Assembly (NCBI GenBank): GCA_041645145.1
Contig: JBAZQO010000001.1
Coordinates: 2,327-66,326, forward strand
From: Candidatus Omnitrophota bacterium
GTDB lineage: Bacteria > Omnitrophota > Gorgyraeia > Gygaellales > Profunditerraquicolaceae
Direction: 5' to 3'
DNA: 64,000 bases
Below are positions 1,517 to 62,600 of this stretch, piece by piece (position 1 is the first letter of the stretch; each line of letters starts with the position of its first letter). Both the position numbers and the translations under genes were made by a program. The notes beneath the pieces are model-generated. The model was given only the letters and a program-made list of their open reading frames with translations, made no database searches and was not told where the DNA came from.

Positions 1517-1526
1517 CTAGTCCTCC

Positions 1527-9517: not shown

Positions 9518-9547
9518 TATTTCACATTAGCTTATAGGAAAAGAATA

Positions 9548-31772: not shown

Positions 31773-32231
31773 TTATAATCCGGATAGCTTCCCCAGGATA
31801 ATCAGAGTAAAAACCATTACAAAAAGCGCAACCGTTTCAGTAATACCCAAAACTGCCAGGTAATTTCCGAAACCCTTGCCAGTCTCACCCATAGCATCGC
31901 AGGCACAGGCAGCGCATTTACCTTGGAAATAAGCGGAAAGGCCTATTGCCATGCCGGCAAAAGCACCTACTCCCCAAAGATATTGCCCTTTATTGGCCAG
32001 TTCGATCATCTTGGTCATTACGATATTGCCATAAATTGTCTGCGTTAGAGGCGCACCGACCAAAGCAACCAGCAAGAATGAAGCGCTTTTATTCTGGTTG
32101 AAGTTTTTCTTCCATGCCCCTATTGCAGCCATTCCTGCTACACCTGCCCCTGCGGCAGAGCCCAAAGCTGAAAGACCAAGCACTAGCCCTAACCCCAAAT
32201 CCTTAAACTGTATTAAAGCCCCTGTTTCCAT
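31773..32231 (-). CDS. atpK: V/A-type ATP synthase proteolipid subunit K (duplicated 4-TM c subunit)
   Basis: 152 aa with four hydrophobic helices. Helix 2 carries LTQTIYG, helix 3 carries YFQG, and helix 4 carries GITETVALF with the conserved carboxylate. Confidence 0.8.
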   Translation of the reverse strand: METGALIQFKDLGLGLVLGLSALGSAAGAGVAGMAAIGAWKKNFNQNKSASFLLVALVGAPLTQTIYGNIVMTKMIELANKGQYLWGVGAFAGMAIGLSAYFQGKCAACACDAMGETGKGFGNYLAVLGITETVALFVMVFTLIILGKLSGL

Positions 32232-32314
32232 CTTAATTCTCCTTTAAATGAGCACTAAACTTACGGGGTACGAAGTCACGAAGTGAGGCGTAAGTTTATG
32301 TGCGGGAACATACT

Positions 32315-34090
32315 TTATTCTTCCTTACAAAACGGTTTATAGGCAAAACCATCCCAGACAACATTGGCGTGGCTGCAAAACTCCAGCACATTAAGCCTTA
32401 CCCCATGGACTAAAACCGACATCGGCCCCAAGATAATATTAAGTGCATGCCCACAGGCAATAATTAAAGCGGCTATAATTATAGTTAAAAAGTCGCCTTT
32501 TTTAATTATTCCGGCAGCCATGGCGTTAAAAGCATCTGCGATAGCTACGCCTGCCAAACCCACCGCAAAAAGACGGATATAGGAAACTACGTCGGTAAAG
32601 TTATTTACCAGGGTTAAAGCTATTGTACCTAAGCCTGCGCCGATTGTCTTAAATATGTTTTTTTGCGGGTTGGTAAAAAATAAAATCAAAATTAAGCCGG
32701 CTATAATCAACCAGTTTCCGAATAATGGGAAAGCATTGCTCAAAAGCAAGCTTTTGGCTAAGAAAAATACTGCCCAGATAATAAAAATCCAGCCTATATC
32801 CGCCAGGGCTGATAATGTCGGAGCCTTTAGTATTGCCCTCCAGCCATGAGCCAGAGATAGGTGTAGCGCACCAATAAAAAAACATAACGCCTGGACAAAG
32901 GCCGCATTATGCAGCGCCGGAACCAGAGGTTTTACCCCTATATCGAACAACCATTCCTGGCCAAAAAATGTTCCAGTCAATAACCCCCATATAATAGCGC
33001 AAAAACTCAGGTTATAAAAGAGAAAAAATACGCTTTTATCTTTAACTTTATATCCAATTTTCTTCTGTAGCCAAAAGTTAAGCAGCAAATAAACCGCTCC
33101 GTATCCAGCATCACCAATAAGCATGCCAAAAAAAATACTAAAAAATATAATAAAAAGCGGGCTGATATCAAGTTCACGGTACCCCGGAATAAGCTCCAGC
33201 AGTTTTAGTACCGGTTTTATAAGTGAAATCCAGGCGGGATTACGGACCAAGGTTGGTACGGCATCTTCCTCATTGGGCTCAAGGGTTAAGATTCCCCAGC
33301 CGTTTTGTTTTGCCTGCTTAACCAACATATCTTCTACATCAATTGGTATATAGCCTTTCAAATATACAATCTCATTTGCCTGCCCCATACCTTTTAAGAC
33401 AGAATAAAAATCTTTTTGATTTAAAAAGGCTTCTTCGACGGCAATAAAATCACGATTATAAACCAAATGCGCGGATAGCTCTTCTCTTATGTTTTGCATA
33501 ACCTTAGTATCTTCACTAAACTTGTTTCTCATGCCAGATAGTGATAATTTAGGTAATTCTAATTCCTTAAAACCAATCTCTATATTTTCTGTTGCCACAA
33601 CTAGACAATTTATTAATGCGCCCTGTACAGAAATCTTCTTTAATAGTATACCTGGCGGCAAACTTTTGATCTTATCCTTGGGAATCTGGTAAAATTTAAT
33701 CAGAACATTCTTTTGTTGCAGAGCCTTTATCTGGGCAGGGTCAAAATCACCCCAAGACTCCCATAAATCTATCCAGTTATTCAAGGTTACCGAATACTCC
33801 CTTAATTGATCATACCTTTTCTGTAAATCAATGACGTGGCGACAGACGGCATCCAAATCTTCTGATTTACGGATTATATGTTTTCCCGGATGTTTCTGGT
33901 TAGCCGCCGATAAAACAGACCTGGCTTGTTCAATCAGATTTAGCTTCTCGCTGATTTCATTAAGCTCAGAGCCACAAGGAATATTCTCGTGCTCAACATG
34001 AACTACCCCCAAGACACGTAAATCATCCAAAGCGCCTTGGGCATGGTTCTGCTGGATAAGCAGAAATACTTTTTTCATTTTAACAATCAT
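32315..34090 (-). CDS. atpI: V/A-type ATP synthase subunit I (a-subunit)
   Basis: 591 aa. A soluble N-terminal coiled-coil half is followed by a polytopic C-terminal half containing the conserved Arg-bearing helix (...SYIRLFAVGLAG...). Confidence 0.8.
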   Translation of the reverse strand: MIVKMKKVFLLIQQNHAQGALDDLRVLGVVHVEHENIPCGSELNEISEKLNLIEQARSVLSAANQKHPGKHIIRKSEDLDAVCRHVIDLQKRYDQLREYSVTLNNWIDLWESWGDFDPAQIKALQQKNVLIKFYQIPKDKIKSLPPGILLKKISVQGALINCLVVATENIEIGFKELELPKLSLSGMRNKFSEDTKVMQNIREELSAHLVYNRDFIAVEEAFLNQKDFYSVLKGMGQANEIVYLKGYIPIDVEDMLVKQAKQNGWGILTLEPNEEDAVPTLVRNPAWISLIKPVLKLLELIPGYRELDISPLFIIFFSIFFGMLIGDAGYGAVYLLLNFWLQKKIGYKVKDKSVFFLFYNLSFCAIIWGLLTGTFFGQEWLFDIGVKPLVPALHNAAFVQALCFFIGALHLSLAHGWRAILKAPTLSALADIGWIFIIWAVFFLAKSLLLSNAFPLFGNWLIIAGLILILFFTNPQKNIFKTIGAGLGTIALTLVNNFTDVVSYIRLFAVGLAGVAIADAFNAMAAGIIKKGDFLTIIIAALIIACGHALNIILGPMSVLVHGVRLNVLEFCSHANVVWDGFAYKPFCKEE

Positions 34091-34725
34091 GCTATCGCCT
34101 CTTCTAAAGCCAGCTCCTCAATCTTTCTTTTAGCAATTTTACAGCGGCCCACGGCATTAGCCATCTGGTCACCTATATAAATCTTAATCAACCGAATATC
34201 CTCTTCTGCCTGCGGAATTTTAACCTTTTCAAAAAGATTAACCCGTTGAGTCGTAATGCGCAGTTCATGCCGCAATATGGCAATACCTTCCTGACGCATC
34301 AAGATCTCTTTTTTTAAAATAATAGTTTCCCTAAGCGCCTCGATTGCTGCGTCAATCCATAAAGGGGTAGAGAACAAATCATATTCGCCTGTGTCAAATT
34401 CCAACGCATCAAATACAGGGATATCCACACCGGCGATATTCTTAAAATGGGTATTTGTTTTGCTTGGCAATAAAAATGGTTTCAGGTCAACTTCCGGCTG
34501 ATTGAGCAAACCAATCCAGTGGTCAATCGCCTGTCTTTTTTTAATCAGAGATTGTTTTCTTTCTTCGAGGATTAAATTCTGCTGCAGGATTTCCAGCTGC
34601 AACTGCTGTTTTTTCAATTGCAAAGTAGGTAGATAGCGCTGGAATTGTTTTAATGCATCGCGCTGCCTCTTTAATTCACCCTTAGTAAGCCTTATCTTTG
34701 CCATTATTTCTTCAGCCAGCCCCAT
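34087..34725 (-). CDS. atpD: V/A-type ATP synthase subunit D (central stalk)
   Basis: 212 aa, highly helical with long coiled coil (LQLKKQQLQLEILQQNL...). It sits between B and I as in V-type operons. Confidence 0.7.
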   Translation of the reverse strand: MGLAEEIMAKIRLTKGELKRQRDALKQFQRYLPTLQLKKQQLQLEILQQNLILEERKQSLIKKRQAIDHWIGLLNQPEVDLKPFLLPSKTNTHFKNIAGVDIPVFDALEFDTGEYDLFSTPLWIDAAIEALRETIILKKEILMRQEGIAILRHELRITTQRVNLFEKVKIPQAEEDIRLIKIYIGDQMANAVGRCKIAKRKIEELALEEAIA

Positions 34726-34775
34726 TAGAAACAGGTTACCAGAGGCAACCGTGAGGTATCTCTGATGTATTGTTT

Positions 34776-36068
34776 CTAACGGGGCCAGTACTGCTCAACA
34801 ATTGAACGCTTGATCCCGGTTTCCTCCGGGCTGAAAGAATCCGCTAAGATTTGCCAACCCAGATCTAAGGCTTTTTCCAAAGGGATATTTACTTTAAGCG
34901 ACATCATGTTCTTTTCAAAAAGCTCCCCGTATTTAAGCAGTTTCTTATCCCAGGCGCTCATCTGAAAACCCATGGATTGTTTTTCAACAGTCTGGCGATA
35001 GCTGGCAAAAAGCTGGATCATCGTATCCATAATAGCGCGGTGGTCTGGCCGGGTCTTACCGTTTACCTGCTGCTTGAGCCGGCTTAATGAACCAAACGGT
35101 TCAATAACCCCATCTTTAAGATAAAACTGGCCCTCCGTAATATAACCTGTATTATCCGGGACAGGGTGTGTTACATCATCGCCCGGCATGGTAGTTGCCG
35201 CAAGAATCGTGATCGAACCTGCCCCTTCAAAATCAACTGCCTTTTCATAACGGCTGGCCAACTGACTGTAAAGATCCCCGGGATAACCGCGGTTAGAGGG
35301 GACCTGTTCCATGGTTATGGAGATTTCTTTTAAGGCGTCGGCAAAATTGGTCATATCGCTTAACAGGACTAATACGCGTTGGCCTTTTAAAGCAAAATCC
35401 TCGGCTACTGCCAGGGCCATATCCGGCACTAAAAGGCATTCCACCACCGGATCAGAAGCGGTATGCATAAAAAATATGGAACGGCTTAAAGCCCCGTGCT
35501 GCTTTAATGTCTCCTTAAAAAATAAATAATCATCATATTTTAGGCCCATGCCGCCTAGAATAATAATGTCGATCTCGGCCTGAATAGCGATCCTGGCTAA
35601 TAGTTCATTGTAAGGCTGGCCGGCAATGGAGAAAATAGGCAGCTTCTGCGATTCCACCAAAGAATTAAATACATCGATCATGGGGATGCCGGTGCGGATC
35701 ATCTTATTAGGCACGATTCTTTTTACCGGGTTAACCGGCGGGCCGCCTATATCAATCATATTCTCGGAAAGTTCCGGGCCACGGTCTAAAGGCATACCGC
35801 TGCCGTTAAATATGCGGCCTAATAGATTCTCTCCCGTGCCTACGCGCATAGGGCGGCCTAAGAAACGCACCTTATCCCCCGTAGAAATACCCCGGCTTCC
35901 GGCAAAGACTTGCAAAGACACTTTCCTGCCGTCAATACGGATGACCTGGGCAAAGCTTGAGCCCTGGCGCACCGAGACCTGGGCGACATCATTATAACCT
36001 ACCCCTTCAGCCTCAACGGTGATCACGTCTCCGGCAATCTGAATAATATTGGTATATACCTTTTGCAT
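34776..36068 (-). CDS. atpB: V/A-type ATP synthase subunit B (regulatory)
   Basis: 430 aa. The nucleotide-binding fold lacks a full P-loop, as expected for B subunits. Conserved blocks [32 protein letters not shown]. Confidence 0.85.
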
Positions 36069-36069
36069 T

Positions 36070-37824
36070 TTATTTTTCTTCCGGGATTCTCTTCTCTTCC
36101 AGTAATATAGAGATCTCTTCTTCGGTCTGCCTAAACTCTGCGCTCATCCAGGCGCTTGAATTCCAGGTACGCAACAGCTGCCTTAATCTCTGAAAAAAGC
36201 GCAAAGCCTTTTCTTTGTCCTCTAATTTAAAGTCGCTAAGCAGTATATTATGGATAAAATCAAATATATAAACCTGCCTTTCTTGAGATGTGGCCTCATC
36301 CACCGCATCAAAAGCATTCTGCTGCAGATAAACAAAATCAAAAAACTCACCCTTAAGATACCCTATGTAATCTTTAAGTGAGATCCCTTCCTCTCCGATA
36401 ACCTTCATCATCTGGGAGATCTCATAGCTTCTGCGCAAGGCCTCATGCCCGTAATTTTCTTTTTTCTCGTCGATAAATCCCTTATATTTGCTCCAGCTGA
36501 TCAGCGGGTCGATCGCCGGATACCTGCGCGCATCGGAACGTTCGCGGGAAAGGCCGTGAAATGCCCCCACTACTTTAAGCGTGGCCTGGGTAACCGGCTC
36601 TTCGAAGTTTCCTCCGGCAGGGCTGACTGCCCCTCCGATAGTAACCGAACCGAAAGAGCCGTCATGCAACCTGACTAACCCGGCCCTTTCATAAAAAGAG
36701 GCGATGCGCGATTCAAGATAGGCAGGAAATGCCTCTTCTCCCGGAATCTCTTCTAATCTTCCGGACATCTCGCGCATGGCCTGGGCCCAGCGCGAAGTTG
36801 AATCCGCAAGCAGCAAAACATTTAAACCCATCTGGCGGTAATACTCCGCCAGTGTCACCGCGGTATAAACGCTGGATTCCCTGGCAGCAACAGGCATAGA
36901 GCTTGTATTGCAGATGATCACTGTGCGGTCAATAAGCGGTGAGTTTGTGCGCGGATCAATTATCTCAGGGAAGCTCTTAAGTGTCTCAACTACCTCTCCG
37001 GCGCGCTCGCCGCAGGCGGCAATAATCACAATATCCACCTCTGCGTGGCGGCTGGTTAGTTGCTGTAAAACGGTTTTTCCCGCGCCAAACGGCCCGGGTA
37101 TGCAATAAGTGCCTCCGCGGGCCACCGGAAACAAGGAATCAATAAGGCGCATCTTGGTTATCAGCGGCTCGCCGGGCTTTAGTTTCTCGGCATATGCCTG
37201 GATAGGAATCTTAACCGGCCAAATCTGTTGTAAAAAAACATCATGTATTCTCCCCGCGGCATTTCTAACTTGAGCAATCGATTGCTTTAAATTATACTTT
37301 CCTGGCGCAGCGACATTTGTTACCTCTAGACTACCAGAAAGCGCGAAAGGAACCATAATATAATGCTTAAAGATTTTCTCTGGGACAAAACCCAACCAAC
37401 TGCCGGCTAAAACTTTATCCCCTAGTTTTACCAAAGGAGTAAAATCCCATTGCGCTTCATCAGAAAGAGCTTCGAGATATACGCCACGTTTAAGAAAAAA
37501 ACCACATTTTTCCGCCAATGCCGGAAGAGGATTTTGCAAACCGTCAAAAATCTGACCCAACAATCCCGGGCCCAACTCAACAGAAAGCAATTCATCACTA
37601 AATTCAACTTCTTGGCCAACCCTTAAACCCGCGGTATTTTCATAAACCTGCATCTCGGCGCGATTTTCTCTTACGCGGATTACCTCTGCCTTTAAACGCT
37701 CAGCGCCATGCAAAATATAGGCAACCTCATTCTGAATAATATGGCCATCGACTTCTGCGACAACCATATTGGCATTAACTTTTACGACGCGCCCGGTTCT
37801 TTTCTTTTCCATATTAGTTTGCAA
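36070..37824 (-). CDS. atpA: V/A-type ATP synthase catalytic subunit A
   Basis: 584 aa. P-loop GPFGAGKT. N-terminal beta-barrel plus the non-homologous insert typical of A subunits. Walker B region [17 protein letters not shown]. Confidence 0.9.
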
Positions 37825-38344
37825 CTACTTGATTAAATAAACGTTCTTTATCCGTCTTTTGTGCTTTATCCCAACGCTCTAAAATCTTCAGTTTTAAAAG
37901 ATAAGTCAGAAGAAAATCAAAATCAAAATAATGGCCAAGGCTTAAAGATTCTAGAAAATTCCACCTGGCTTGATCCAGGATCTTTTCCGCTCCCAATATA
38001 GAGGTGCTTCTATAAGCAGTCATAGCTACATGGATAATATACGCCTCGGGATCATCGGGAAGACGGGTAAATTTTAAAGCATCTACCTTCTTACGCCTGG
38101 CCCGCGCGCGGGCCAATTCATTTCTTAAGCCTATCTCAAAGTTAGCCCATTTCCCCAGAATGCCTGTTGCTGCGGCGTTTAAAAAAGATGCCTCTTTATA
38201 ACAGGCATTACGCAAAAGCTCAATCTCTGTTTCCGGGATTAACCCCTTACACTTAGCAAAGAAGTCCTCTAAGCTAAAAGGCGGCCGGGAAGCAAAACTA
38301 AGCATTGGCAGGCTAGAGATCAGATATGTATAATAAGCTCCCAT
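37814..38344 (-). CDS. hypothetical protein at the subunit C/F position of the V-ATPase operon (DUF2764-like?)
   Basis: 176 aa, helical. Conserved location between atpE and atpA, which mirrors the chlamydial atpE-hypothetical-atpA arrangement. Confidence 0.4.
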   Translation of the reverse strand: MGAYYTYLISSLPMLSFASRPPFSLEDFFAKCKGLIPETEIELLRNACYKEASFLNAAATGILGKWANFEIGLRNELARARARRKKVDALKFTRLPDDPEAYIIHVAMTAYRSTSILGAEKILDQARWNFLESLSLGHYFDFDFLLTYLLKLKILERWDKAQKTDKERLFNQVVAN

Positions 38345-38947
38345 TTATTCGGATTTTAAGACCCTGTTTAGCTCAGGCCTTAAGGAGCCGGATATATACT
38401 CTGTTAAAGCCTGGGTGCTAAAATCAAAGGTGGACTTACCGGAATCAAAGCTGATCATAAACCCGCTATCAATTTCATCCGCGGACTTTAAGATTATCTG
38501 TTTTTTTGTTTCCTCCGCCAACTGCTTTAAAAATCCCTTTTCTAATTTATCCTTATCTTGCCGAGCAAGGGAAATAACAATCTGGCTGCCTAAAGAAAGC
38601 GGCGCGTTCTTAATCAAGTCCCTAATAATTCTGGTTAATTCTTCTACGGTCAAAGCCTGACGTATATTTAACTTAACCAACCTGTCCAGCATAGAATTGA
38701 TTTCTTTTCTTAAACTAATCAGTAAATCTCGGCCTGCCTGTTTTAGAGAGGCGTTGGTGGAATTATCCAGTTTTTTCGCCTCAAAGTTAGCCTGCTCAAT
38801 AATTTTCTCAGCCTGCATTTTTGCCTCAGCAATTATTCTTTGAGCCCTGGAATCTGCTTCAGCTTTTATTTGCGCAGCCTGCTTTTCAGCCGCCACTATC
38901 CCTTCCTGTTGTATCTTGGCAATCAAATCCTTAATCTCTTCTGCCAT
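38345..38947 (-). CDS. atpE: V/A-type ATP synthase subunit E (peripheral stalk)
   Basis: 200 aa. N-terminal long charged helix MAEEIKDLIAKIQQEGIVAAEKQAAQIKAEADSRAQRIIAEAKMQAEKI typical of subunit E. First gene of the V-ATPase block. Confidence 0.7.
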   Translation of the reverse strand: MAEEIKDLIAKIQQEGIVAAEKQAAQIKAEADSRAQRIIAEAKMQAEKIIEQANFEAKKLDNSTNASLKQAGRDLLISLRKEINSMLDRLVKLNIRQALTVEELTRIIRDLIKNAPLSLGSQIVISLARQDKDKLEKGFLKQLAEETKKQIILKSADEIDSGFMISFDSGKSTFDFSTQALTEYISGSLRPELNRVLKSE

Positions 38948-44947: not shown

Positions 44948-46186
44948 TTAGAATAAACTTAACTGCTGCTCGCCTCTCCCCTCTTTTTTATCATCCTCAA
45001 ATATGGAGATCGTGCCATATTCGCCGTCAAAACCGGCTTTAATATTAACCTTACCTTGGCGCACCCGCAAAACTCCCTCTGCAACCTTTTTCGGCAGGCT
45101 CTTAAGTAGTTCTTCTTTTGATGCCCTAAGCAAAACCTCAAACTCTGTTCCGAACTTGGCCAGATAGCCGTGATAATCCCTTGCCACGCTTACCGAGGCC
45201 TTACCCACACCTTTTGCCTCGGCAATTATTTCCTCAAAGGGGATCAAATTCTTAAAGGGTATGGCGTTCTCCGGCTTAAAACCTTCCGGGCGGTCAGCAA
45301 GTTTTTCTACGCGATTGGCCACGCCTACTGTGACGGGTTTTCCGCATTTAGGACACCTGCCGTTATTTTGCCTGGTTTCCTCCGGCGAGAAGCGCACCCC
45401 GCAGAGGCGGTGGCCGTCAAAATGGTATTTACCTTCTTCGGGAAAGAATTCAATAGTATATAAAAATCTCTTCCTGTCCTTGGTTTTTAAAACCTCGCGG
45501 ATAGTTTGGTAATCTAATTCGCAATTAAAGACATTGGCCTCGCGGCCGATTTTAGACGGGGAATGCGAATCGCTGTTTGAGATCAAGGTGAATTTATCTA
45601 AAGCGGAAAGCCGCCAATTCATACCAGGATCCGAGCTTAATCCCGTCTCCAGCGCAAAGATTTTCGGCGTCTGTTCCTCAAAACAATCCTGGATTCTATC
45701 AAATCCTGACATAGACCCAAATAGAGAAAACCAGGGGGTCCAGATATGGCCCGGGACGATCATGCAGTTTTCGTCAATATCAAAGACAATACGCGCTAAC
45801 TCCGCCGCGTCTAAACCCAATATCGGACGGCCGTCGCTGGCCAGGTTCCCTATCCTGCTTAAACGCTCATTTATCTTGTCTACGCTTTTAAATGAAGGGC
45901 TAAAAATCAAATTATGGATACGGTATGTGCGCCCCCCCTTGGAATAAATACTGCTTACCTCGGCGGTAAGCATAAAATATATTCCTGCGTGCTTAAACAG
46001 GCCGTTTCCGCAATCCTCTAATGTATGCTTTAACTCTTCCAGCCAGAGATGATGCGTAAAATCTCCGGTGCCCATCAAAGTTATGCCTTTTAATCTCGCC
46101 CACTCTGCCAAATGCTTAATATCCATATCCCGGCTGGTTGCCCGGGAGTATTTTGAGTGGATATGAAAATCAGCGATAAATTCCAT
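44948..46186 (-). CDS. PHP-domain endonuclease Q-like protein (EndoQ family) with C-terminal zinc finger
   Basis: MEFIADFHIHSKYS (PHP metal-binding His), GTGDFTH, SNSDSHSP, IGREANVF, then GKYHFDGHRLCG...CPKCGKP zinc ribbon, ending ...LSLF. Block order matches archaeal EndoQ as far as I can recall it. Confidence 0.6.
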   Translation of the reverse strand: MEFIADFHIHSKYSRATSRDMDIKHLAEWARLKGITLMGTGDFTHHLWLEELKHTLEDCGNGLFKHAGIYFMLTAEVSSIYSKGGRTYRIHNLIFSPSFKSVDKINERLSRIGNLASDGRPILGLDAAELARIVFDIDENCMIVPGHIWTPWFSLFGSMSGFDRIQDCFEEQTPKIFALETGLSSDPGMNWRLSALDKFTLISNSDSHSPSKIGREANVFNCELDYQTIREVLKTKDRKRFLYTIEFFPEEGKYHFDGHRLCGVRFSPEETRQNNGRCPKCGKPVTVGVANRVEKLADRPEGFKPENAIPFKNLIPFEEIIAEAKGVGKASVSVARDYHGYLAKFGTEFEVLLRASKEELLKSLPKKVAEGVLRVRQGKVNIKAGFDGEYGTISIFEDDKKEGRGEQQLSLF

Positions 46187-49150: not shown

Positions 49151-49218
49151 AAAGGGACGCTTAATTGGAGACCTTCTTATTGGCTGATAAACCTTTGGGA
49201 AGGTTAGCGTCCCTTTTA
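49151..49218 (-). terminator. long-range stem (12 bp) enclosing an inner hairpin, immediately 3' of the giant ORF stop
   Basis: aaaagggacgct ...45 nt... agcgtccctttt. The inner part has ccttc..gaagg pairing. On the minus strand it is followed by UUAUUUG. Confidence 0.45.
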
Positions 49219-52200
49219 TTGAGCTATCAATTGTGGCTCTTTAGCGAGAACCTGCACCTTTGCTAATGCCAGTCTTAATTCATTTACCGGTTTATCCGAT
49301 TCAAGTAGAACCAGGATTTCTCTTAAAGATGATTCCGTGTAACAGGCCTTTTCTTCCTCCTGCCTTAGGATATCCGCAATGCAGGCAAGAACCTTATCTA
49401 CCTGGCTATTTGGATCTTGCAAAGACAAAAGATATTCTCTTAAGCGTTCGCAGGAGGGAGCTATGCCTGAATTTGCCATCCTCTCTATCTCCTGCCATTC
49501 TTTATCAGAAACAGGGACAGGCCCCTTCGGGGACAGTCCCTGTTTTAAAGCTTTTGATGCCGCCATCGGCTGGATAACCGTATTCTTGGACAATGACCGC
49601 ATATCAATTCCGCCGACATTTTCTTCAAGTGGGCTAGCGGTCTTAGTTTTATCATATACTGCATCATATTGCTCCAGGGTGGCACCGTTGATTCTCCGCC
49701 AATGCCAACGCTCTCCTCCATCAATAATTTCCTTTGTTGGATCCTCGTAGCCATCGAAATGTGGCGCAAATCTTCCTCCAGCTCCGGTAACAACAGGCGA
49801 GGTATAAATATCACTGAACGGTTTACCTCGTTCTTCAATCTCTTTTTTTACAACTGCTTGAATAAAATTAGCAGGTATATTGTTAATACCGGATTCGCGT
49901 AAGCTTCTTACTTCTTTTTTCTTTCTCTCAATATATTCCAACTTCAAAATTTCTCCTTCTTGTCGAATATGCGTATAGACAGCTACACTATTATTAACAA
50001 CTCCAAAATATAGTTTTCCGCCTGTTGATGGCCTAATTAAAGCCAATGCCTGGTCATATTGTTTGCCCGACAATTCTCCAAGTAGACTGATTTCAATTTC
50101 ATTGTCATTTGCGGCGATAGCAACATCTTGCCCAAGCTGTTGCTCTAGGCTAGCAGATCGATCTTGCGTGGCAACCGGCGAGCCGGCTGACTCACCGTAT
50201 ATGCGTTTCTCAGTATAATTATACTTCTGGCCATCATTTAGGCTGCCAACTTTTTCTTTTAACCTCCAGAAATCGCCATTTACCGGATTTATGATATTTT
50301 CGTAGAGATCCTTTATTTGTTCGTCATTTTGACAGGAAAAAAATGCTCTGCGATTTTTCACATATCTTGCATCGTTCCCCCAATAATACTCTAATGACAA
50401 ATATAACTTAATCAGACGGCTATAATATGCTCCTTCGGGATTTTTGGTAACATCAATGAGGCTGTTTAAGTCGGTTTTTAGTATGGCTATTTGGTTCAGG
50501 ATTACTTGCTCGCGTTGCCCCGAAGAATGAAGCCAGTTTACGACCTGGATATTTATGTCCATGTTGTCAGCCAATCCCGATATCCCCATGGAACTAACTG
50601 ATTGTTTAATTTTATCGGATAATTCGCGCTTGAACCCAAATTCCTCGCCTCGTTTTGCCCAGGGCACAGCAATATCTATATCTCTGATAGAATCTAGGGG
50701 CACCAACCCCGATTCATCCGCCAAATATCTGGCGCTGCCTACCAAGACAGCATCGCTACCTGCAGCTTCCTTCAACATAGATTCAAATAATCTTATGTTC
50801 AACCAAATGCTCCCGTCTTCTTTAGCTATAGTTAATCCGCTAACAGGAGAACTGGCGGGCTTGCCTGCAACCGGCGAGCCGGCGGATTGCTGCTGCATCC
50901 GACCAGCTATTACTTCTCCATAATTATTTTTAATCCAGGACAATATGTAATCCCTTCGATGTTTCAAGGTGTCTTGCAAATAAGTCCGGTCAACTCTGCT
51001 CATGCGTATACTATCCACTAAGGTGTTAATAGCGTCATCAGTTAGCCGTGTTTTTAAAACCGCTCCTTGTTCAATAATATCTTTTGGGGTTAGTCCATAT
51101 GCTTCATAGGCCTGGCGCATACCATAGCCTAATCTCTCAAAATTATCACCTCTTTCGAGTTCTCGAACGGGAGCCTGTGGCCCAAACAAATCTTTGTCCT
51201 TTCTTTGTCCGCGTGCACGGAAAAGTAGTGCGCCTCCATTATCTATCCTATAGAGCAACCCTCCGGAAATCAATGTATTGCGATCTATAGCGTAAGGAAT
51301 ATCCCAGTTAGCCATTAAGGTATCTGCCAAAAATCCATGGATAACCAGCTGCTTATGTGCCTCGAGAGTAGCTGTCATGTCAAGGGGCAATATCCTAGAG
51401 GCATGCCCATAGTTTCCGGCGACTTTAACGATTTTTGTTTCAGGAACAGGGATTCCGAGAACTCTGTACAACTTATTTGCCAAATCCTCTACCCAAATAT
51501 GTGACTCCTCTTCATGCTGGGCAAACTTCACATAATATGGTGAAGGACCGCTATCTGTAGGAACGGTGAATTCTGCTCCGGGATTGCTTCCTTTTTGTTC
51601 GCCTGTCTTTAGAGAATAATCCCATACTTCAACTGGAACTGAATAGTTGAAGTTTGAACGGATAGAATCATATTCATCAGCGCTGAATAATAACGTTCCT
51701 TGCAAATTATAAAGAGGAATATAAAAGCCATTTTCTACAATTGCTCTCTTGACCTTTTCCAATGTCTTATCGGGACTACGCAAGACGATTGATGCTATCT
51801 CAGTTGCTGGCATTCCTCCTAAAAGTAGCGAGTGATGAGAAGAAGGCCCATACTCTTTCCCTTCCTCCCAACATCCCTTTCCGCGATGATATACATACCA
51901 TAACTGACCATCTGACCCTAATAAACCTCTACCCCCATAACCGTTTGAAAGTGATGCGGTGATAATACGCTCCGTCTCCTGGTGCAGCCCTATAAAATCC
52001 CGCGTAAGACGGGTGAAATCTACATGGAATGGATATGAATCGGTTGTCGCTCCTTCACCCAATGCCTCTCTAGGAAGATTGCCGTTTCTAAGCACAGATT
52101 CAAGGACATCAACTGTCGAACCATGCAAATAATCTCCGTCTTGCAAACTTAATTTCTTAATGACGACTTGCCGGTTTCGTGCATCTGCTTCGGCTTTACT

Positions 52201-55200
52201 TTTCTCGTCCTGACTTGTTTCTATTGTTTGTTTTAAATAGTGCCGAAAAATCCACGGCTTATAGTCAGTTTCCAGTTCCGAAAATGGAATAGAATGAATT
52301 TGTCCAGACTCTAGCTGGGTAATCAAGGACTGATTAACAACTATGCCCTCTAATCGCGTCTTTGTGTTCGGATTGTTCTGTTTAGCCGCTATATGTTCTG
52401 CGACAATATCAGTCAAAGGAACAACTGTCCCATCTTCAAATGCTATCTCAGTTAACGGATACTCAGACGCAGCAGATCTTAATTGCGAACCAAGCCGCGT
52501 CTCAGCAAAAAGAAACAATTGCTGCCAATACGCTGTGGGCTTCGTAAATATTGATTCAATTACCTGGGCTCTAGCTACCGCATTATCATTGGAGAAAATA
52601 TCCTGCATGATAAGCATGCGGTTTTCATGTAAAGGGCCACCAACTTGCAAAAGACTAAAAAGATTTGGTGCGTATTCCGATAGAGATACGATTTCATTAA
52701 TCTTGTCTGGCCTGCGCGCCAGATATGCCAACACAGCTTTATCTAAATAAAAATCTTGATGTACGTATAACTTCCCGTTCGGCTCAAAAAGATTCATAAG
52801 CAACATCTGTACGGCTTTATTAAATAAAACATGGTGCTTCTCGTCCGCTGTCCTGTAATCCCACCTTGCTTTCAATTGATAATCAGTAGAGCCTAACCAC
52901 TTCAAGATTCCATTAGTTAACGCCTGCGATAGAAAACCCTGCGCTTGCTGGATTGTATAGAGATGATAAAAGAACGGCCGTAGGCCTTCATTCCTATTAG
53001 CGTAAAATCGCATCAAATTCTCATACGGATCTATAATAAAAATCCTATCGTAGCCTCTCGGGCTATCCTTATTGTTTTCTATTTCATAAAATAAGTGGTA
53101 CTGAAAATCGGGGGATATCTTTTTAATTTCGTAAAGCGCACTGATTATGTCGGCTTTTTGTTCATATATCCCTGGCAAAATCTTATAATGCTCAATAGAG
53201 AACAAGTATCCAAGGGGTCTCAAATCTTCTATGCATTGTACAATTTCATCTCGGTTAGCTAACATAATATACTGTTTAAGATATTCAGGATCATAGAAGC
53301 CCCCATATCCGGTTTCATAGATATCGCGGACTCTTTTAAGAAATGAAATTGTTTTTTTCAAGGCCTGAATCTTTTGTCTAGTGGAAGCGTGAGGAGGAAA
53401 ATAATCATCCCCTAAAGCGGGGATGAATAAACTAATCTCGGAGTCTGCAATACCCTCCTTTTCTATAGTAGCCAAAAACATCTGGGGTGCAAGAGCACGG
53501 ATTTTCTCCTGCAGGTAATCTGGCACATGTGTGAAACTACGCAGGACGACCTCCACAGCGGCAAAGTTATTCGGATCATCGAAGTATCGTGATTTAAAGA
53601 CGACCATGTCTAAAAGCTCTGCCTGCAACCGATGATTACGCGAAGTCCGTAAAATATCTTCCATAATTGCGTATCCTAGGCTCAAATTTACATCCTTGAG
53701 GCGCTCGAGAAGCGCCATAACAAAAAACTGTTTAGCTTCATTATATCCTCCTCTCCCATCTCTCTCCCGGAGGAAAGTTATACACATCTCTGCTAAATTT
53801 TGCTTAATTTGCTTATAAATAGGATTGTCTACAAGAGATGCGGACATTGTTCTATCCTTAACAATACCTGGCTGCATACCGATATCTTTACAGGCGCTCT
53901 CAATCGCTTCCCGCAAAGATAAAACTGTGTCTCTTCTTCCTATTTCCCAAATTGTCTCCTCTCTGCCTTCTTGATAAGCAAACATTAACTCATCAAATTT
54001 GTCTATGTTAGGAGAAAAATACCTTTTCTCAAACGCTTCTTTTAATCGTTTCCATTCAGGATTGTCAATCATCAACGCGCTATAAGTATTAGGGTGAGTG
54101 CGTACTGTCTCAATGATTTCTATTAAACCCGGGATATTTTTCTGCTTTAAGGTAATTCGTTCGCTTTCAGTCAGAGACAATATGAAATAGGTCACCCGCC
54201 CTGGGAGAAAAGGATACTCTCCTGAATAGCCCGGCTCTCTCCAAGAATTCATAATAATTAAAGGTGCCAATTCTACTTTTAATCCCGGGCTTTCTTCTGC
54301 TAACCAGAATAATCGATATCCTAAGTCGATTGATTCATTTGTATGTTCTTTTTCCTCAAGCAGATCATTAACCGTTCGCTTAGCAAGTGTTCGCTCAAGC
54401 GCATCGAACGTATAGTCGCCAAACATACTTTTGATTTTAGGGTTAGCCTTGAATGTACTCCAGCGTTGCTTGAAGCTTTCATTTATAAAATGATCTTTAA
54501 GAATTGCTTTAGGCATCAATGAGATATCCAACGGCAAATTCTCTCGGTGTTCGCTAATATGCCGTTCAACATTGGCCGTGATATTTCCTGATCCTATCCG
54601 GATAAATTCTTTTCTCATTGTATTTTGTTTAGCTTCGCTTTGGCCTAATGTGTCTCTGATTATTTCTTTTACTTGGTTCACCAAAGATATGGGTAAATTT
54701 TCCGCTTCAAGAGCATTGATAAAACTCAAGAGCAATTCATGCGCATGTTGTCTTATCAATAAATCGGTTATTCTCCCATATGCTTTATCTTGGTCGCCCC
54801 GTTGTAGACCGATCTGTCCGCCTAATTCACTTAGTTTAAAACTACACTCTCGATTTAATTCATCGAGCCTGTTATTCCGCTGGCGAACGCGATCGCTCTC
54901 TTCCTGGCTTCCCCCCCATCCACTATATATTGCGGCAATTCCTTCTCTTAGCTGTTCTCTTGCAAGCGCCAAGTACTCCTTGGCCTGCTCAGGAGTTATA
55001 TTTCCTTTTCGCTCTAACTCACGAAGCCCCGGCATTATTTTCTTATCTATCAATTCTTCATTTAATTCTGCGTATAAGCTATCATTATTTACTAAAGACT
55101 CTTCCGCCCGAGTATATTTTGCCAAAACCCCAGTTATAATGCTCTTTATTTTATCAAGATATTCCACACATTTATCGTCCATTTCGTTTTGCAACGACTC

Positions 55201-56853
55201 TGTTCTTGAGTTGAGCTGATTAATCTCATTGGCGATTTCTTGTTTCTTATTTTCTAACTGCAACTGGAGAGTATCAATTTCTGACTGCATTCGTGTTATA
55301 TTTTGCTTTGTGTCTTTTCGCATCCCCCAACTCTTGAACCAAATCAACCAGGGCTTATTTTTTTCATCACGCAAAATCTGTTTTTCCTTTTCTATATTAC
55401 CTTGGATTTCTTCTATTTTTGTTTTAGATATAAAATCTGCCTGTTCTCTTTGTTTTATCAAGATAGCTATTCTCTGTTCACGTGCTTTCTTCTCTTGTTC
55501 TAATCCTTTAATTCTTTCTTTAAGCCCAGCAATGTTTATTAGATCATTTTTAAAAACCGCTTCTATCTCTATGCCGATAGTACCTAAGGGAAAACTGGTC
55601 GACTTGGACTGTAAAGTCGCCGACGAGCTGGCGGCGGGCGGCTGCTCAACCGCAGATGAAGCTAGCTCTGTTTCCCCATCAAAAGGATTGCTTACAATAC
55701 CACCTTTAAATTTAAAGCCTAATCCATATGGCCGAATTAACGCCTTAGCATCTCTCCGCAGTACAAGTCCTTGCGTAATCGCTGAAGATACTGATGCCAA
55801 AGCAATGCCACCACTCATATAGCTCCTGATAGTCTGACCATAGGGAGTGTAGCGCGGCTCTTTAATGTTATATTCTCCTTGCTGGAAAGAAGCTTTGTAG
55901 GCATTAAAGTAAGTTGTTTTAGACCAAGAGGTTTTGGAGGTTAAACCAGTCAGGTTGTGTCTGTCTATGAGGTAGGGATATACGCCTGATTTACCGTAGA
56001 ATTTCTGTTTAAACCACTGCGCCAGGATAAGTGAATAGTAAACCTGCCTTAAGGGAGCGTATCTTTTGGAGGAATTAATTTCTTTGGTTAACTTAGGAAT
56101 AATGGTTTCTCTGATGAGTTGTGAGGAGTATTCGTTCAGAGCTTTGGAGCGCTCATCCTTGAAATTATAGGTAGATGAATCCTTAAGATAGTCTTGCTCA
56201 AGCATGACCTTCAGCGTGGCTTTGTAGATGTAAGCATTGTCAGAGCTCTCTCTGATGATGATTTCATCCGGGACTATCCATGGACGAGTGAGCGTAGGAA
56301 TGGTTATATTTTCAGAACCGTAGAGCTCTTCTGCTTTCTTGTAAAGCTTGTCCCAATAGTCTTTTCCTTCTAGAGTTTGGGGGGAGGTAAAATTAGCGGT
56401 ATCTTTCTTTAGCTGGAGGTCTGCCTCAAGCAGAATCTTTCCTACGTCAGTTTCGCCCAGTTCGCTATCTATAATGTTGTCTTCTGCATCTGGCCTTAAA
56501 TTTACCCAAAAGGCTTCATTGGGCAAGGATATGCCGATGAAAAAATAATTGAGCAGGGTTTTGGTTTCTTGTTGCAAACTCTCCTTAGGGTCAGTTCCCT
56601 TCGGGGACAGACCCTTCACAAAATCTCCTTTGTCTAGAAGCAGATTAAAGTTGTTGACGCTTGGGTCATAAGAGAGGTACCTTAAATGAAGAGGCCGGAA
56701 TCTGTCCTGAATGAAGCTATTTCGCAGGGCAAGAAAATGGCTTGAGAGATCCAACTCTCCGGCAATTTGGGCAAAGCCGGATTGCTCAAATACCATGAAA
56801 AAACATATGGCAATAGCAATGATTTTAAATAATTTACTAGATTTAATCTTCAT
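49216..56853 (-). CDS. giant secreted/surface protein (2545 aa), largely alpha-helical with coiled-coil segments; contains an atypical kinase-like motif region
   Basis: Signal peptide MKIKSSKLFKIIAIAICFFMVFEQSGFAQIA. Heptad-rich region around residues 430-560. Low-complexity linkers (PPAASSSATLQS; GESAGSPVA twice). Region ~1700-1790 HGFLADTLMANWD...LLYRIDNGGALLFRARG has the D-x4-N ... D-x-G spacing seen in protein-kinase-like folds. Confidence 0.6.
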   Translation of the reverse strand: MKIKSSKLFKIIAIAICFFMVFEQSGFAQIAGELDLSSHFLALRNSFIQDRFRPLHLRYLSYDPSVNNFNLLLDKGDFVKGLSPKGTDPKESLQQETKTLLNYFFIGISLPNEAFWVNLRPDAEDNIIDSELGETDVGKILLEADLQLKKDTANFTSPQTLEGKDYWDKLYKKAEELYGSENITIPTLTRPWIVPDEIIIRESSDNAYIYKATLKVMLEQDYLKDSSTYNFKDERSKALNEYSSQLIRETIIPKLTKEINSSKRYAPLRQVYYSLILAQWFKQKFYGKSGVYPYLIDRHNLTGLTSKTSWSKTTYFNAYKASFQQGEYNIKEPRYTPYGQTIRSYMSGGIALASVSSAITQGLVLRRDAKALIRPYGLGFKFKGGIVSNPFDGETELASSAVEQPPAASSSATLQSKSTSFPLGTIGIEIEAVFKNDLINIAGLKERIKGLEQEKKAREQRIAILIKQREQADFISKTKIEEIQGNIEKEKQILRDEKNKPWLIWFKSWGMRKDTKQNITRMQSEIDTLQLQLENKKQEIANEINQLNSRTESLQNEMDDKCVEYLDKIKSIITGVLAKYTRAEESLVNNDSLYAELNEELIDKKIMPGLRELERKGNITPEQAKEYLALAREQLREGIAAIYSGWGGSQEESDRVRQRNNRLDELNRECSFKLSELGGQIGLQRGDQDKAYGRITDLLIRQHAHELLLSFINALEAENLPISLVNQVKEIIRDTLGQSEAKQNTMRKEFIRIGSGNITANVERHISEHRENLPLDISLMPKAILKDHFINESFKQRWSTFKANPKIKSMFGDYTFDALERTLAKRTVNDLLEEKEHTNESIDLGYRLFWLAEESPGLKVELAPLIIMNSWREPGYSGEYPFLPGRVTYFILSLTESERITLKQKNIPGLIEIIETVRTHPNTYSALMIDNPEWKRLKEAFEKRYFSPNIDKFDELMFAYQEGREETIWEIGRRDTVLSLREAIESACKDIGMQPGIVKDRTMSASLVDNPIYKQIKQNLAEMCITFLRERDGRGGYNEAKQFFVMALLERLKDVNLSLGYAIMEDILRTSRNHRLQAELLDMVVFKSRYFDDPNNFAAVEVVLRSFTHVPDYLQEKIRALAPQMFLATIEKEGIADSEISLFIPALGDDYFPPHASTRQKIQALKKTISFLKRVRDIYETGYGGFYDPEYLKQYIMLANRDEIVQCIEDLRPLGYLFSIEHYKILPGIYEQKADIISALYEIKKISPDFQYHLFYEIENNKDSPRGYDRIFIIDPYENLMRFYANRNEGLRPFFYHLYTIQQAQGFLSQALTNGILKWLGSTDYQLKARWDYRTADEKHHVLFNKAVQMLLMNLFEPNGKLYVHQDFYLDKAVLAYLARRPDKINEIVSLSEYAPNLFSLLQVGGPLHENRMLIMQDIFSNDNAVARAQVIESIFTKPTAYWQQLFLFAETRLGSQLRSAASEYPLTEIAFEDGTVVPLTDIVAEHIAAKQNNPNTKTRLEGIVVNQSLITQLESGQIHSIPFSELETDYKPWIFRHYLKQTIETSQDEKSKAEADARNRQVVIKKLSLQDGDYLHGSTVDVLESVLRNGNLPREALGEGATTDSYPFHVDFTRLTRDFIGLHQETERIITASLSNGYGGRGLLGSDGQLWYVYHRGKGCWEEGKEYGPSSHHSLLLGGMPATEIASIVLRSPDKTLEKVKRAIVENGFYIPLYNLQGTLLFSADEYDSIRSNFNYSVPVEVWDYSLKTGEQKGSNPGAEFTVPTDSGPSPYYVKFAQHEEESHIWVEDLANKLYRVLGIPVPETKIVKVAGNYGHASRILPLDMTATLEAHKQLVIHGFLADTLMANWDIPYAIDRNTLISGGLLYRIDNGGALLFRARGQRKDKDLFGPQAPVRELERGDNFERLGYGMRQAYEAYGLTPKDIIEQGAVLKTRLTDDAINTLVDSIRMSRVDRTYLQDTLKHRRDYILSWIKNNYGEVIAGRMQQQSAGSPVAGKPASSPVSGLTIAKEDGSIWLNIRLFESMLKEAAGSDAVLVGSARYLADESGLVPLDSIRDIDIAVPWAKRGEEFGFKRELSDKIKQSVSSMGISGLADNMDINIQVVNWLHSSGQREQVILNQIAILKTDLNSLIDVTKNPEGAYYSRLIKLYLSLEYYWGNDARYVKNRRAFFSCQNDEQIKDLYENIINPVNGDFWRLKEKVGSLNDGQKYNYTEKRIYGESAGSPVATQDRSASLEQQLGQDVAIAANDNEIEISLLGELSGKQYDQALALIRPSTGGKLYFGVVNNSVAVYTHIRQEGEILKLEYIERKKKEVRSLRESGINNIPANFIQAVVKKEIEERGKPFSDIYTSPVVTGAGGRFAPHFDGYEDPTKEIIDGGERWHWRRINGATLEQYDAVYDKTKTASPLEENVGGIDMRSLSKNTVIQPMAASKALKQGLSPKGPVPVSDKEWQEIERMANSGIAPSCERLREYLLSLQDPNSQVDKVLACIADILRQEEEKACYTESSLREILVLLESDKPVNELRLALAKVQVLAKEPQLIAQ

Positions 56854-59659: not shown

Positions 59660-62600
59660 TTACTCTTCCTCCTCGGCGATTACCGGGGCAACGCAGGAAA
59701 CCCGGTCTTTATCCTGCAGCTTAATCAACCGAACACCTTGCGCTGAACGACCGGTTTCACGGATATCCTTTATGGCGCAGCGCAAGAATATGCCATTTTG
59801 AGTAATTACCATAAGCTCATCATTGTCATTTACGGTCTTTAAATTTACTGCCTGGCCGTTCTTATCCGTAACCTTAATATTGATCACCCCTTTGCCGCCG
59901 CGGCTGGTTAAGCGATACTCATCAATGGTGGTGCGTTTTGCAAAACCCAATGCCGTAACCGTCAATATTGTAGAATCCTTTTGCGGGACAACCATATCGA
60001 TAACTTCGTCCTTTTTAGCCAGAGATATCGCGCGCACGCCATGCGCCCCCCTGCCCATATCGCGCACATTTTCCTCAGAAAATCTTATGGCCTTACCTTG
60101 CCTGGTCCCGATAAGCAGTTCCTGTTTTCCGTCGGTCATCTCCACGCCGATCAACGCGTCATCCTTATCTAAGGTAATCCCGATAATCCCGCCTTTGCGC
60201 GGATTACCATAAGCCTCTAGCTTAGTTTTCTTAATTTGCCCCAGCTTAGTCACCATGACCAAATATTTATCCGGTGAAAAATCCTTAACCGGAATAGTAG
60301 AGCTAATTTTCGCTACCTGCTCCATCTGCACCAAATTCACAATAGCCTTGCCCTTAGAGACACGGCTAGCTTGGGGTATCTCATAAACCTTTAGCCAGTG
60401 CACCTGTCCTTTATCTGTAAAAATCAAAAGGTAGTCTTTGGTAGAAGCCACAAAAAGATGTTCACTAAAATCTTCCTCTTTTAAATCCGCTCCGGTTGCC
60501 CCTGTGCCCCCGCGTTTTTGCTTACGGTATGCGCTTACCGGCAGGCGCTTAATATAGCCACCATGACTAATTGTCACCACTACATCCTCATCGGCAATTA
60601 AATCCTCAACCTCCAACTCTTCTGCTTCACCCACTATATCTGTACGCCTTTGGTCACCATATTTTTTCTTTAAATTATCCAGCTCTTCCTTAATAATCCC
60701 TTCAATTTTTTTATCCGAACCTAAGATCGCCCGGCAGATTTCAATTTTCTTTAAAAGCTCGGCATACTCCGCGTCAATTTTATCGCGCTCAAGAGCAGTT
60801 AAGCGCTGCAACTGCATTTCAAGAATTGCCTGCGACTGCAACTCCGAAAGCTCAAACTCCTTCATTAAGTTTACCTTGGCCGCCTCAACACTCTTAGAGG
60901 TCTTAATGACTTTGATAATCCGGTCAATAAACTTAAGCGCTATCTTTAAACCTTCTAAAATATGCGCGCGCCTTAAAGCCTTGTCTAATTCAAACTGGGT
61001 GCGTCGGCGGATAACAATCTTGCGATGCTCAATATAACAATCTAATACCTGGCGTAAATTTAATACCCTGGGCCGATTATCCACCAGAGCCAGCATAATA
61101 ATGCCAAATGTGGTTTCCAGTTGAGTATGTTTAAAAAGTTGATTCAAAACAATCTGGGATTCGATATCACGCTTAAGTTCAACCACAATGCGCATGCCAT
61201 CCTTATCAGATTCATCGCGGATATCAGATATGCCTTCAATTTTTTTATCATCAACCAAAGCCGCAATAGCTTCAATAAGCCCCGATTTCTGCACCTGATA
61301 AGGAATTTCAGTAATAATAATTAAATCTTTGCCATTCTTTTGATGCTCTACAGTTGCCCGGGAACGTATGAGTAATTTACCTCTTCCGGTAGTATACGCA
61401 TCTTTAATCCCCGCCTTGCCGCAGATTAATCCTCCAGTAGGAAAATCCGGCCCTTTTACATAACGCATCAGGTCCTTAATCTCTGCCTCGGGGTGATCAA
61501 GTAGATAAATAATGGCATCACAAACTTCATTTAAATTATGCGGCGGTATATTGGTGGCCATGCCCACGGCAATACCGCTTGAGCCGTTGACTAAAAGATT
61601 GGGAAGGCTCGCCGGTAAAAGTAAAGGCTCCTTTAAAGAAGAATCAAAGTTCGGACCAAAATTAACGGTTTCTTTTTCAATATCACCAAGCATCTCTTCA
61701 GAAACCGCAGCCAGGCGGGCCTCGGTATTATGACTTATGAATCCATTGGATACAAATGAGTGACATGGACTATCCACTTTAATTGAATAGACTCTTTTCT
61801 TACCGGCATCTTCTATCGAAACAATTTTATCAAAGATATATCTATTTTTTATCAAACCCTCAAACAAACTAACATCGTCTTTATCAAGAGCCCTTCTTAG
61901 CCTAGGCCAGTATTTTTCTATTTTTGGGTACCTATCGATGTTGTGTTTTTTTAGCCATTCTATGTTCCCCCAATATTTTCTCCTGCACCGTGTGCTTTTT
62001 TTACGAATATAGTCGGCGATGTAGGGAATAAAATCTGTCTTGGACATAGCCCAATCAGTTTTATTGCGATTACAAATATCTATCAGCCTTTCACGACTTT
62101 TCTTGGTAGCAAAATTTATTTGATTTTTAAATAAATCGAGATTATTGCGGCCTCTAATAAACAACCTAAAATAGTTTTTTTGCTTATGAAATCTATGCGA
62201 AGAATCGATGCCAAACATTAGCAGAAAAACTTGTAAACCTTGAATCAATTTTCCGCTGGTTGATATCAAGCTAACATCGGGGTTTCTCTTGCCAACACAA
62301 ATACTACCATCTCCCTCCGCATAACCTTTTATAAATGCAGCAACCGATTTTTTCGAGGAAGAAAAAATTATATCTGGAATGGTTTTATCATAAGCTCGCA
62401 ACTGGCGTAACCCTAGATTTTTCAAAAAATCTATAACATGCATTGAATGAATTTCTAAATAAGTACACTTCTTTTTCCCATAACCCAATGGTTTTCTTAC
62501 AAATTCATGCAGCCTGCAATCGGGGAATACTCGCTGGAAGCACGATTTAAATTCCCGTAGAAACTCTTTATCCCCATTACAGAATCCAATTTGTTCTTTG

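Follow-up and report, generated by a model that had tools for sequence, protein, structure and literature searches.

What kind of machine can be built from a V/A-type ATPase operon of seven genes only, and which ion does it move? This question is raised by a locus in a 64,000-nucleotide stretch of DNA, here called the window, from a Candidatus Omnitrophota bacterium (assembly GCA_041645145.1, contig JBAZQO010000001.1, positions 2,327 to 66,326 of the forward strand). Its minus strand encodes, between window positions 31,773 and 38,947, the subunits E, A, B, D, I and K of a rotary ATPase and a 176-residue protein that had been left as hypothetical. We consider it likely that the locus represents a complete rotary V/A-type ATPase of the reduced type known from Borrelia, Chlamydia and Bacteroides, here found in Omnitrophota and predicted to be coupled to Na+. 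What could be observed directly, and what this reading builds on, are the identities and the order of the genes and the correspondence and conservation of residues.

The seven open reading frames (ORFs) are intact and tightly packed. Their order, E, 176-residue protein, A, B, D, I, K, had been read from the letters by an initial annotation; the ORF listing together with Pfam and NCBIfam confirmed it at the exact coordinates, with E-values down to 1e-227. The intergenic gaps within the operon measure 0-83 nucleotides, and therefore there is no room for any extra gene inside it. Subunit A reaches 755 bits with NCBIfam model NF003220 (V-type subunit A; cutoff 470) and contains, apart from the Pfam domain ATP-synt_ab, the A-specific insert ATP-synt_ab_Xtn (PF16886). 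B, D and K likewise exceed the cutoffs of their subunit-specific equivalog models. E and I stay below theirs, though both match the right models: E scores 124.5 bits with NF002424 (V-type subunit E; E-value 4e-36), the curated cutoff being 241, and I scores 449.6 bits, the cutoff being 799. Among solved structures, subunit I is closest to NtpI, the subunit I of the Enterococcus hirae Na+-ATPase (8wci_P, E-value 4e-26), where SYTRLMALG aligns with SYIRLFAVG and the arginine is conserved. The parts of the motor are all present: an A3B3 head with its P-loop, the shaft D, the stator I with its arginine, and K with one carboxylate per subunit. For K and for the 176-residue protein, the closest homologues are named Candidatus Omnitrophota, and identical copies are found on environmental contigs. 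A scan for promoters and terminators did not reveal clear operon boundaries. The features are compiled in the table.

Table. Features of the seven-gene ATPase operon (positions in the 64,000-nucleotide window)
Feature	Position	Strand	Remarks
Subunit E	38345..38947	-	200 aa; peripheral stalk; Pfam vATP-synt_E, E-value 3.7e-6, residues 20-196
Short-form DUF2764 protein	37814..38344	-	176 aa; formerly 'hypothetical'; Pfam DUF2764
Catalytic subunit A	36070..37824	-	584 aa from TTG start; 580 aa from ATG at 37812
Subunit A P-loop GPFGAGKT	37072-37095	-	residues 244-251
Subunit B	34776..36068	-	430 aa; Pfam ATP-synt_ab; NCBIfam equivalog NF002555, 752 bits (cutoff 431)
Subunit D, central shaft	34087..34725	-	212 aa; Pfam ATP-synt_D (PF01813), E-value 2e-35; NF002565, 213 bits (cutoff 189)
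Subunit I/a, membrane stator	32315..34090	-	591 aa; Pfam V_ATPase_I (PF01496), 34 bits (cutoff 30.7)
Essential arginine R506 of subunit I, motif SYIRLFAVG	32573-32575	-	by alignment to E. hirae subunit I
Subunit K, four-helix proteolipid	31773..32231	-	152 aa; Pfam ATP-synt_C (PF00137); NCBIfam equivalog NF005174, 174 bits (cutoff 127)
K helix 2 ion-site segment APLTQTIY (A60-Y67)	32031..32054	-	aligned to NtpK L61-Y68
K Q103, helix 3 ligand	31923..31925	-	NtpK Q110; conserved in 60/60
CAACAC (C106, C109, C111) in K helix 3	31899..31916	-	by AlphaFold model and alignment
K E132-T133, helix 4	31833..31838	-	NtpK E139-T140; E132 is the principal ligand; E in 60/60

The coupling ion is a matter of subunit K. 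The motifs LTQTIYG, YFQG and ITETVAL, to which the initial annotation had drawn attention, are all present in the translated K, and their T, Q, Q and E had been proposed to occupy the Na+ site of the E. hirae proteolipid NtpK. They do. With the NtpK sequence identical to PDB 2BL2 as reference and the ligand definitions of PMC2359735, MAFFT and BLASTP agree in matching T63 to T64, Q64 to Q65, Q103 to Q110 and E132 to E139; none of these residues falls off an ion-binding position. Y67 further corresponds to the stabilising Y68, and A60 to L61, which contributes its backbone carbonyl. According to this match, A60 provides the carbonyl, T63 and Q64 are ligands, and Y67 stabilises the glutamate. 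In helix 2, the counterpart of the glutamate is L62, which leaves no carboxylate there, E132 being located in helix 4; therefore each four-helix K has one ion site. The fold agrees: an AlphaFold model of K (pLDDT 75) comprises four helices (residues 3-43, 48-80, 86-114 and 121-150) and is superimposed by Foldseek on 2bl2_A with TM 0.74/0.72. When the single K sequence was run against PDB with phmmer, NtpK was missed.

Because the site contains the full E. hirae-type ligand set (A60, T63, Q64, Q103, E132 and Y67), the enzyme is predicted to couple to Na+. This prediction from sequence is well supported, and the Na+-translocating V-type ATPase suggested earlier holds at that level. How strictly the site is kept is seen in 60 K subunits taken from related loci in several phyla. 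All 60 have Q64, Y67, Q103 and E132; at position 63, 33 of them have T and the other 27 have S. The signature also discriminates. Firmicute K subunits and that of Parabacteroides carry it, whereas in a Streptomyces c subunit the accessory ligands are missing and the K of Tateyamaria has Phe at the Q65 position.

The enzyme might nevertheless be driven by, or pump, H+ in vivo despite its Na+ ligands, e.g., in a habitat low in Na+. Rotor rings of the Na+ type can indeed translocate H+ when Na+ is missing (PMC2359735), and the samples from which the DNA stems are environmental metagenomes of unspecified salinity. This alternative is unlikely, since the full ligand set is strictly kept in the 60 clade members, which stem from varied habitats, and since relatives without one ligand do exist. 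The Tateyamaria K shows that a ligand can be lost where it is not needed; the strict conservation of the Na+ site across the clade implies selection for Na+ binding.

K has another peculiarity, the cysteine cluster CAACAC, which had been assigned to the loop between helices 3 and 4. This placement has to be corrected. In the model helix 3 extends from residue 86 to 114 and the loop is formed by residues 115-120 (GETGKG); the cluster resides within the helix. C106-C111 align with V113-I118 of NtpK, the cysteines themselves with V113, A116 and I118. Three cysteines within six residues of a membrane helix may remind one of a redox or metal-binding site that regulates the rotor, and the closest Omnitrophota relatives all have C111 and nearly all have C106. 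Across the clade, however, C106, C109 and C111 are cysteine in only 13, 11 and 26 of 60 members, respectively, and otherwise mostly A, G, S or V. Small residues at such positions, as also at those of NtpK, usually would serve helix packing, and a spacing of i, i+3, i+5 does not bring all three cysteines to one face of the helix. Since it is not conserved and lies inside a helix, the cluster was rejected as a redox or metal site; we attach hardly any probability to such a function. Judged from the model, the cysteines are probably lineage-specific substitutions at small-residue packing positions, a special function being unlikely.

Is a set of seven genes complete? The initial annotation had stated that C, F and G/H genes are missing. 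As far as F and G/H are concerned, this is correct for the operon. Hidden Markov models (HMMs) were built from genuine subunits of annotated canonical operons, i.e., C (5 sequences), F (5) and G-like (4), and none of them matched any six-frame ORF of at least 40 residues in the window at an E-value of 10 or less. Pfam scans of essentially all other genes of the window disclosed neither a rotary-ATPase subunit nor an F-type gene, and no Rnf or Nqr either. Neither C nor F thus turned up elsewhere in the window, and subunits F and G are truly lacking in both operon and window. The case of subunit C is different and is discussed below.

The same reduced set is widespread. With the B subunit as query, 593 relatives were found in GTDB genomes, of which the best 80 loci were analysed; their B subunits are 74-87% identical to that of the window. 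They belong to Omnitrophota, Lentisphaerota/Victivallales (including Victivallis vadensis DSM 14823), Kiritimatiellales, Spirochaetia/Treponema, Fibrobacteria and Verrucomicrobia. The order E-DUF2764-A-B-D-I-K, in which DUF2764 denotes the 176-residue protein or its homologue, is found in every one of the 80 loci long enough to show it. Annotated records of Parabacteroides and Bacteroides finegoldii show it as well, with a DUF2764 protein of 280-292 residues.

A few loci deviate in detail. In L011 (Omnitrophota) an ORF of 441 residues without Pfam match lies between B and D (9281-10606), and in L061 a gene is inserted between DUF2764 and A. That these gaps hide extra subunits was considered and rejected: the insert of L061 is a DNA methylase, and the ORF of L011 has no match to the C, F or G HMMs. 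L047 (Omnitrophota UBA10183, DNHS01000051.1) contains at 1-5105, directly upstream of the minimal E-DUF2764-A-B-D-I-K set, a second V/A operon (...F, E, A, B, D, universal stress protein). Two alphaproteobacterial plasmids, L083 from Tateyamaria omphalii and L092 from Qingshengfaniella alkalisoli, carry a circularly permuted operon (B-D-I-K-hypothetical-hypothetical-A); their A subunits are 52-54% identical to that of the window, and it is their K that has Phe in place of the Q65 equivalent. The 'hypothetical' before A resembles DUF2764 marginally at best; the one of Tateyamaria, with 184 residues, shares no more than the N-terminal motif, and that weakly (probability 6%), and was not confirmed as DUF2764. 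Finally, the near-identical Omnitrophota-type operons L016, L017, L018, L034 and L044 (B 77-83%) are filed under metagenome-assembled genomes of Methanobacteriota, Methanomicrobiales, Methanoregulaceae, Syntrophales and Myxococcales. These archaeal and other labels probably result from mis-binning. On the other hand, associations of Omnitrophota with hosts, archaea among them, have been reported, as is reflected in the species name V. archaeovorus (PMC10066038).

One could still suspect an incomplete or cryptic remnant, the rotor of which does not work unless C, F and G are supplied by another operon. Canonical bacterial V/A-ATPases have nine subunits, the additional operon of L047 includes a true F, and the homologue of Kuenenia was barely expressed (PMC2936114). 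Such decay is highly improbable in view of seven intact ORFs and of a seven-gene set that is conserved across phyla at the B identities given above. Moreover, two V/A sets within 8 kb were seen in L047 only, i.e., in 1 of 80 loci, and the second set there has A, B and D of its own. There are also organisms that live with this type of rotary ATPase alone: in Table 1 of PMC2359735, no F-type enzyme is given for Chlamydia, Borrelia, Treponema and P. gingivalis, the V-type being their only rotary ATPase. In Bacteroides fragilis, transposon mutants of the corresponding operon suffer from severe fitness defects in deoxycholate (bioRxiv 10.1101/2023.05.11.540287).

We therefore return to the complete, reduced enzyme, which is an ordinary member of an already described V-ATPase family. 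The chlamydial operon of this family is CT304-CT310. That the layout is of the chlamydial type was a fair description: clusters without C, F and G are known from B. burgdorferi, chlamydiae and Kuenenia (Lolkema, Chaban & Boekema 2003, as cited in PMC2936114), and the order recurs in the 80 related loci and in Bacteroidales. The clade is known from the literature, where the enzymes of Chlamydia, spirochaetes and Bacteroidetes form one divergent group (PMC2359735). The type found in Borrelia, Chlamydia, Treponema and Bacteroidetes shares with the window the same seven genes in the same order, the lack of F and G and a K with the full set of Na+ ligands, as exemplified by the seven-gene operon PTOS_002482-88 of B. 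fragilis, where DUF2764 comes second and K has all Na+ ligands (bioRxiv 10.1101/2023.05.11.540287). The window differs from this type by its host phylum, Omnitrophota, by an E gene that overlaps pyrF, and by the scores of E and I under the NCBIfam equivalog cutoffs.

The V-ATPase of E. hirae (NtpFIKECGABD; 2BL2, 8WCI) shares with the window a four-helix K with one site made from T/Q, Q and E plus the stabilising Tyr. Their K sequences are only about 27-29% identical, the gene order is I-K-E-C-F-A-B-D there and E-X-A-B-D-I-K here, and the nine-subunit composition is not matched: there are seven genes in the window, nothing like F or G, and a half-size DUF2764 protein in place of C. By sequence the enzyme probably works like that of E. 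hirae at the ion site but stands outside the E. hirae operon type. The A/V-type ATP synthase of Thermus thermophilus and archaea is homologous in its subunits A, B, D, E and I. The rotor subunit of Thermus is a single hairpin coupled to H+, and the Thermus enzyme has the full set of C, F and G and acts as a synthase. In solved structures the Thermus rotor subunit measures 73-102 residues and is thus much shorter than the one of the window, which is duplicated and of the Na+ type, in an enzyme with a reduced accessory set.

We now turn to subunit C, the alleged absence of which is probably wrong. The 176-residue protein matches DUF2764 (PF10962) with 46.1 bits (gathering score 24.1), if only over profile positions 200-264, and hhalign relates it to the full-length DUF2764 of Parabacteroides with a probability of 98%. 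Its short-form relatives match DUF2764 in 61 of 62 cases. Short forms are common, with 1,478 representative clusters at an E-value of 0.001 or less, mostly 170-190 residues long. Compared with the Bacteroidales proteins, they keep the first 50 or so and the last 125 or so residues and miss about 80 internal ones. Public gene calls let the protein start at Met14 (163 residues, P0121; also L089/L090, 3001-3492). This start removes the conserved N-terminal motif YYxLxxSLP (window 38306-38344), and for this reason the start right after the stop codon of E, which yields 176 residues, is better supported.

What does this protein do? The 2023 study of B. fragilis names it by its DUF2764 annotation alone and assigns no function (bioRxiv 10.1101/2023.05.11.540287). 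Its gene occupies the place of C in canonical E-C-F-A-B-D operons. The long form of B. finegoldii aligns by its residues 32-245 with positions 71-314 of PF01992, the Pfam family of subunit C/d, at 26.7 bits (E-value 4.4e-6; cutoff 29). Our own C HMM, when run against 14,038 ORFs, matches long forms of DUF2764 only (E-value about 0.02), the match running through two colinear D-x-x-N-l motifs. From these similarities a derivation of DUF2764 from subunit C/d appears probable.

Several results speak against a relation to C/d. The B. finegoldii match itself is just below the gathering score. PF01992 (vATP-synt_AC39) is reached by none of the 62 short forms, even at an E-value of 10 or less. A profile-profile comparison of DUF2764 with the five-sequence C profile by hhalign was not significant, nor was that of the DUF2764 profile with a single NtpC-type sequence or with subunit F. 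Foldseek found no significant match of the DUF2764 model in PDB. Phmmer and profile matches to PDB sequences, i.e., to ribosomal protein eL19 and chorismate dehydratase, were dismissed as chance. The size is a further point: with 176 residues the protein is about half as large as C/d, the three-domain pseudo-symmetric socket of which cannot be complete in such a chain. DUF2764 would accordingly be a remote relative of PF01992; by Pfam's rule it is not a member of the family.

On balance, we lean towards DUF2764 being a pared-down descendant of C/d, so that the 'missing C' of the Borrelia/Chlamydia/Bacteroides-type enzymes would not be missing at all. The short form of Omnitrophota and spirochaetes, with its roughly 175-185 residues, might then be the smallest rotor socket known, in an enzyme with a shaft made of D only and stalks made of E only. 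If this is true, nature has provided a minimal V-ATPase with a C subunit of half size. The link to C/d offers the DUF2764 family a concrete hypothesis, even if it is only a modestly new lead.

How would such a machine work? A3B3 would be the head that hydrolyses or synthesises ATP, and D would form the central shaft without an F subunit. The DUF2764 protein, as a shortened and divergent C/d, would most likely couple D to the ring of K. E alone may build the peripheral stalk or stalks, with no separate G. I would act as the membrane stator that carries the essential R506, and K, a duplicated four-helix proteolipid with one site per subunit, would use Na+ as the coupling ion. One ion site per four-helix K results in a low ion/ATP ratio that favours pumping, as in E. 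hirae and eukaryotic V-ATPases. For this reason, ATP-driven export of Na+, which builds a sodium-motive force, would be the main direction of an enzyme that presumably is reversible.

There are also points that weigh against a sodium pump. Na+ selectivity is determined by more than the set of ligands, and also by the ambient Na+/H+. For the seven-gene type, no biochemical data on any enzyme are available (bioRxiv 10.1101/2023.05.11.540287). The others concern the direction: the same complex might be a physiological ATP synthase, the main or only one of the cell, running on a sodium-motive force that is generated by Rnf or decarboxylases encoded elsewhere. Rnf, a possible source of this force, is commonly encoded by Omnitrophota, some lineages of which are described with a V-type ATPase (PMC10066038). 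In vitro, the E. hirae V-ATPase, too, makes ATP when supplied with a sodium-motive force (PMC12018189), the authors of the B. fragilis study favour a synthase role for their seven-gene enzyme (bioRxiv 10.1101/2023.05.11.540287), and the 64 kb of the window contain no F-type genes. A synthase is a serious competitor, yet we rate it as clearly the less likely role: with one site per four-helix K the ion/ATP ratio favours pumping at ordinary ion-motive forces, and a Na+-pumping redox enzyme is not encoded within the window. ATP-driven Na+ export thus stays our preferred direction.

The surroundings of the operon deserve a short comment. Upstream lies a cluster for pyrimidine biosynthesis (pyrB, pyrC, carB-like, pyrK, pyrD, pyrF), and the ATG start of E overlaps the end of pyrF by 17 nucleotides (38931-38947). 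Downstream follow an outer-membrane-like protein and then unrelated genes. In 17 of the 57 loci with enough upstream sequence, atpE immediately follows pyrF, and the stop codon of pyrF often overlaps the start codon of atpE. These 17 loci all belong to those closest to the window (within L001-L056, e.g., L001, L003, L006, L010, L011, L013, L019, L021, L022, L024, L027) and are of the Omnitrophota type. This suggests that in this lineage the V-ATPase is co-transcribed with the genes of pyrimidine biosynthesis. The pyrimidine/carbamoyl-phosphate cluster also contains an ORF of 412 residues without Pfam match (44948-46186, minus strand).

Other genes of the window may be mentioned in passing; all are on the minus strand. 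The gyrA gene (1251 residues, 59660-63415) is interrupted by an intein with a LAGLIDADG homing-endonuclease domain at about residues 130-563 (Pfam Intein_splicing, LAGLIDADG_3). An ORF of 2545 residues (49216-56853) has no Pfam match at all; giant ORFs are reported to be typical of Omnitrophota (PMC10066038). Seven radical-SAM proteins are encoded in a dense run between 1527 and 13914, with glycosyltransferases among them and an ABC transporter after them. Several of the seven have a SPASM domain, one is B12-binding, one is fused to a methyltransferase and one to a GT2 glycosyltransferase; the run resembles a biosynthetic cluster of the modification or polysaccharide type.

The current understanding of rotary ATPases is not changed by these findings. 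What they settle is an annotation: the Omnitrophota locus is a complete V-ATPase of the reduced type and a predicted user of Na+. A survey of the phylum, which notes V-type ATPases and Rnf, does not mention sodium a single time (PMC10066038). Coupling to Na+ would bear on how membranes are energised in these ultra-small, possibly host-dependent bacteria. Beyond the phylum, the strict conservation of the Na+ site across at least five phyla supports the view that the entire clade may consist of sodium machines.

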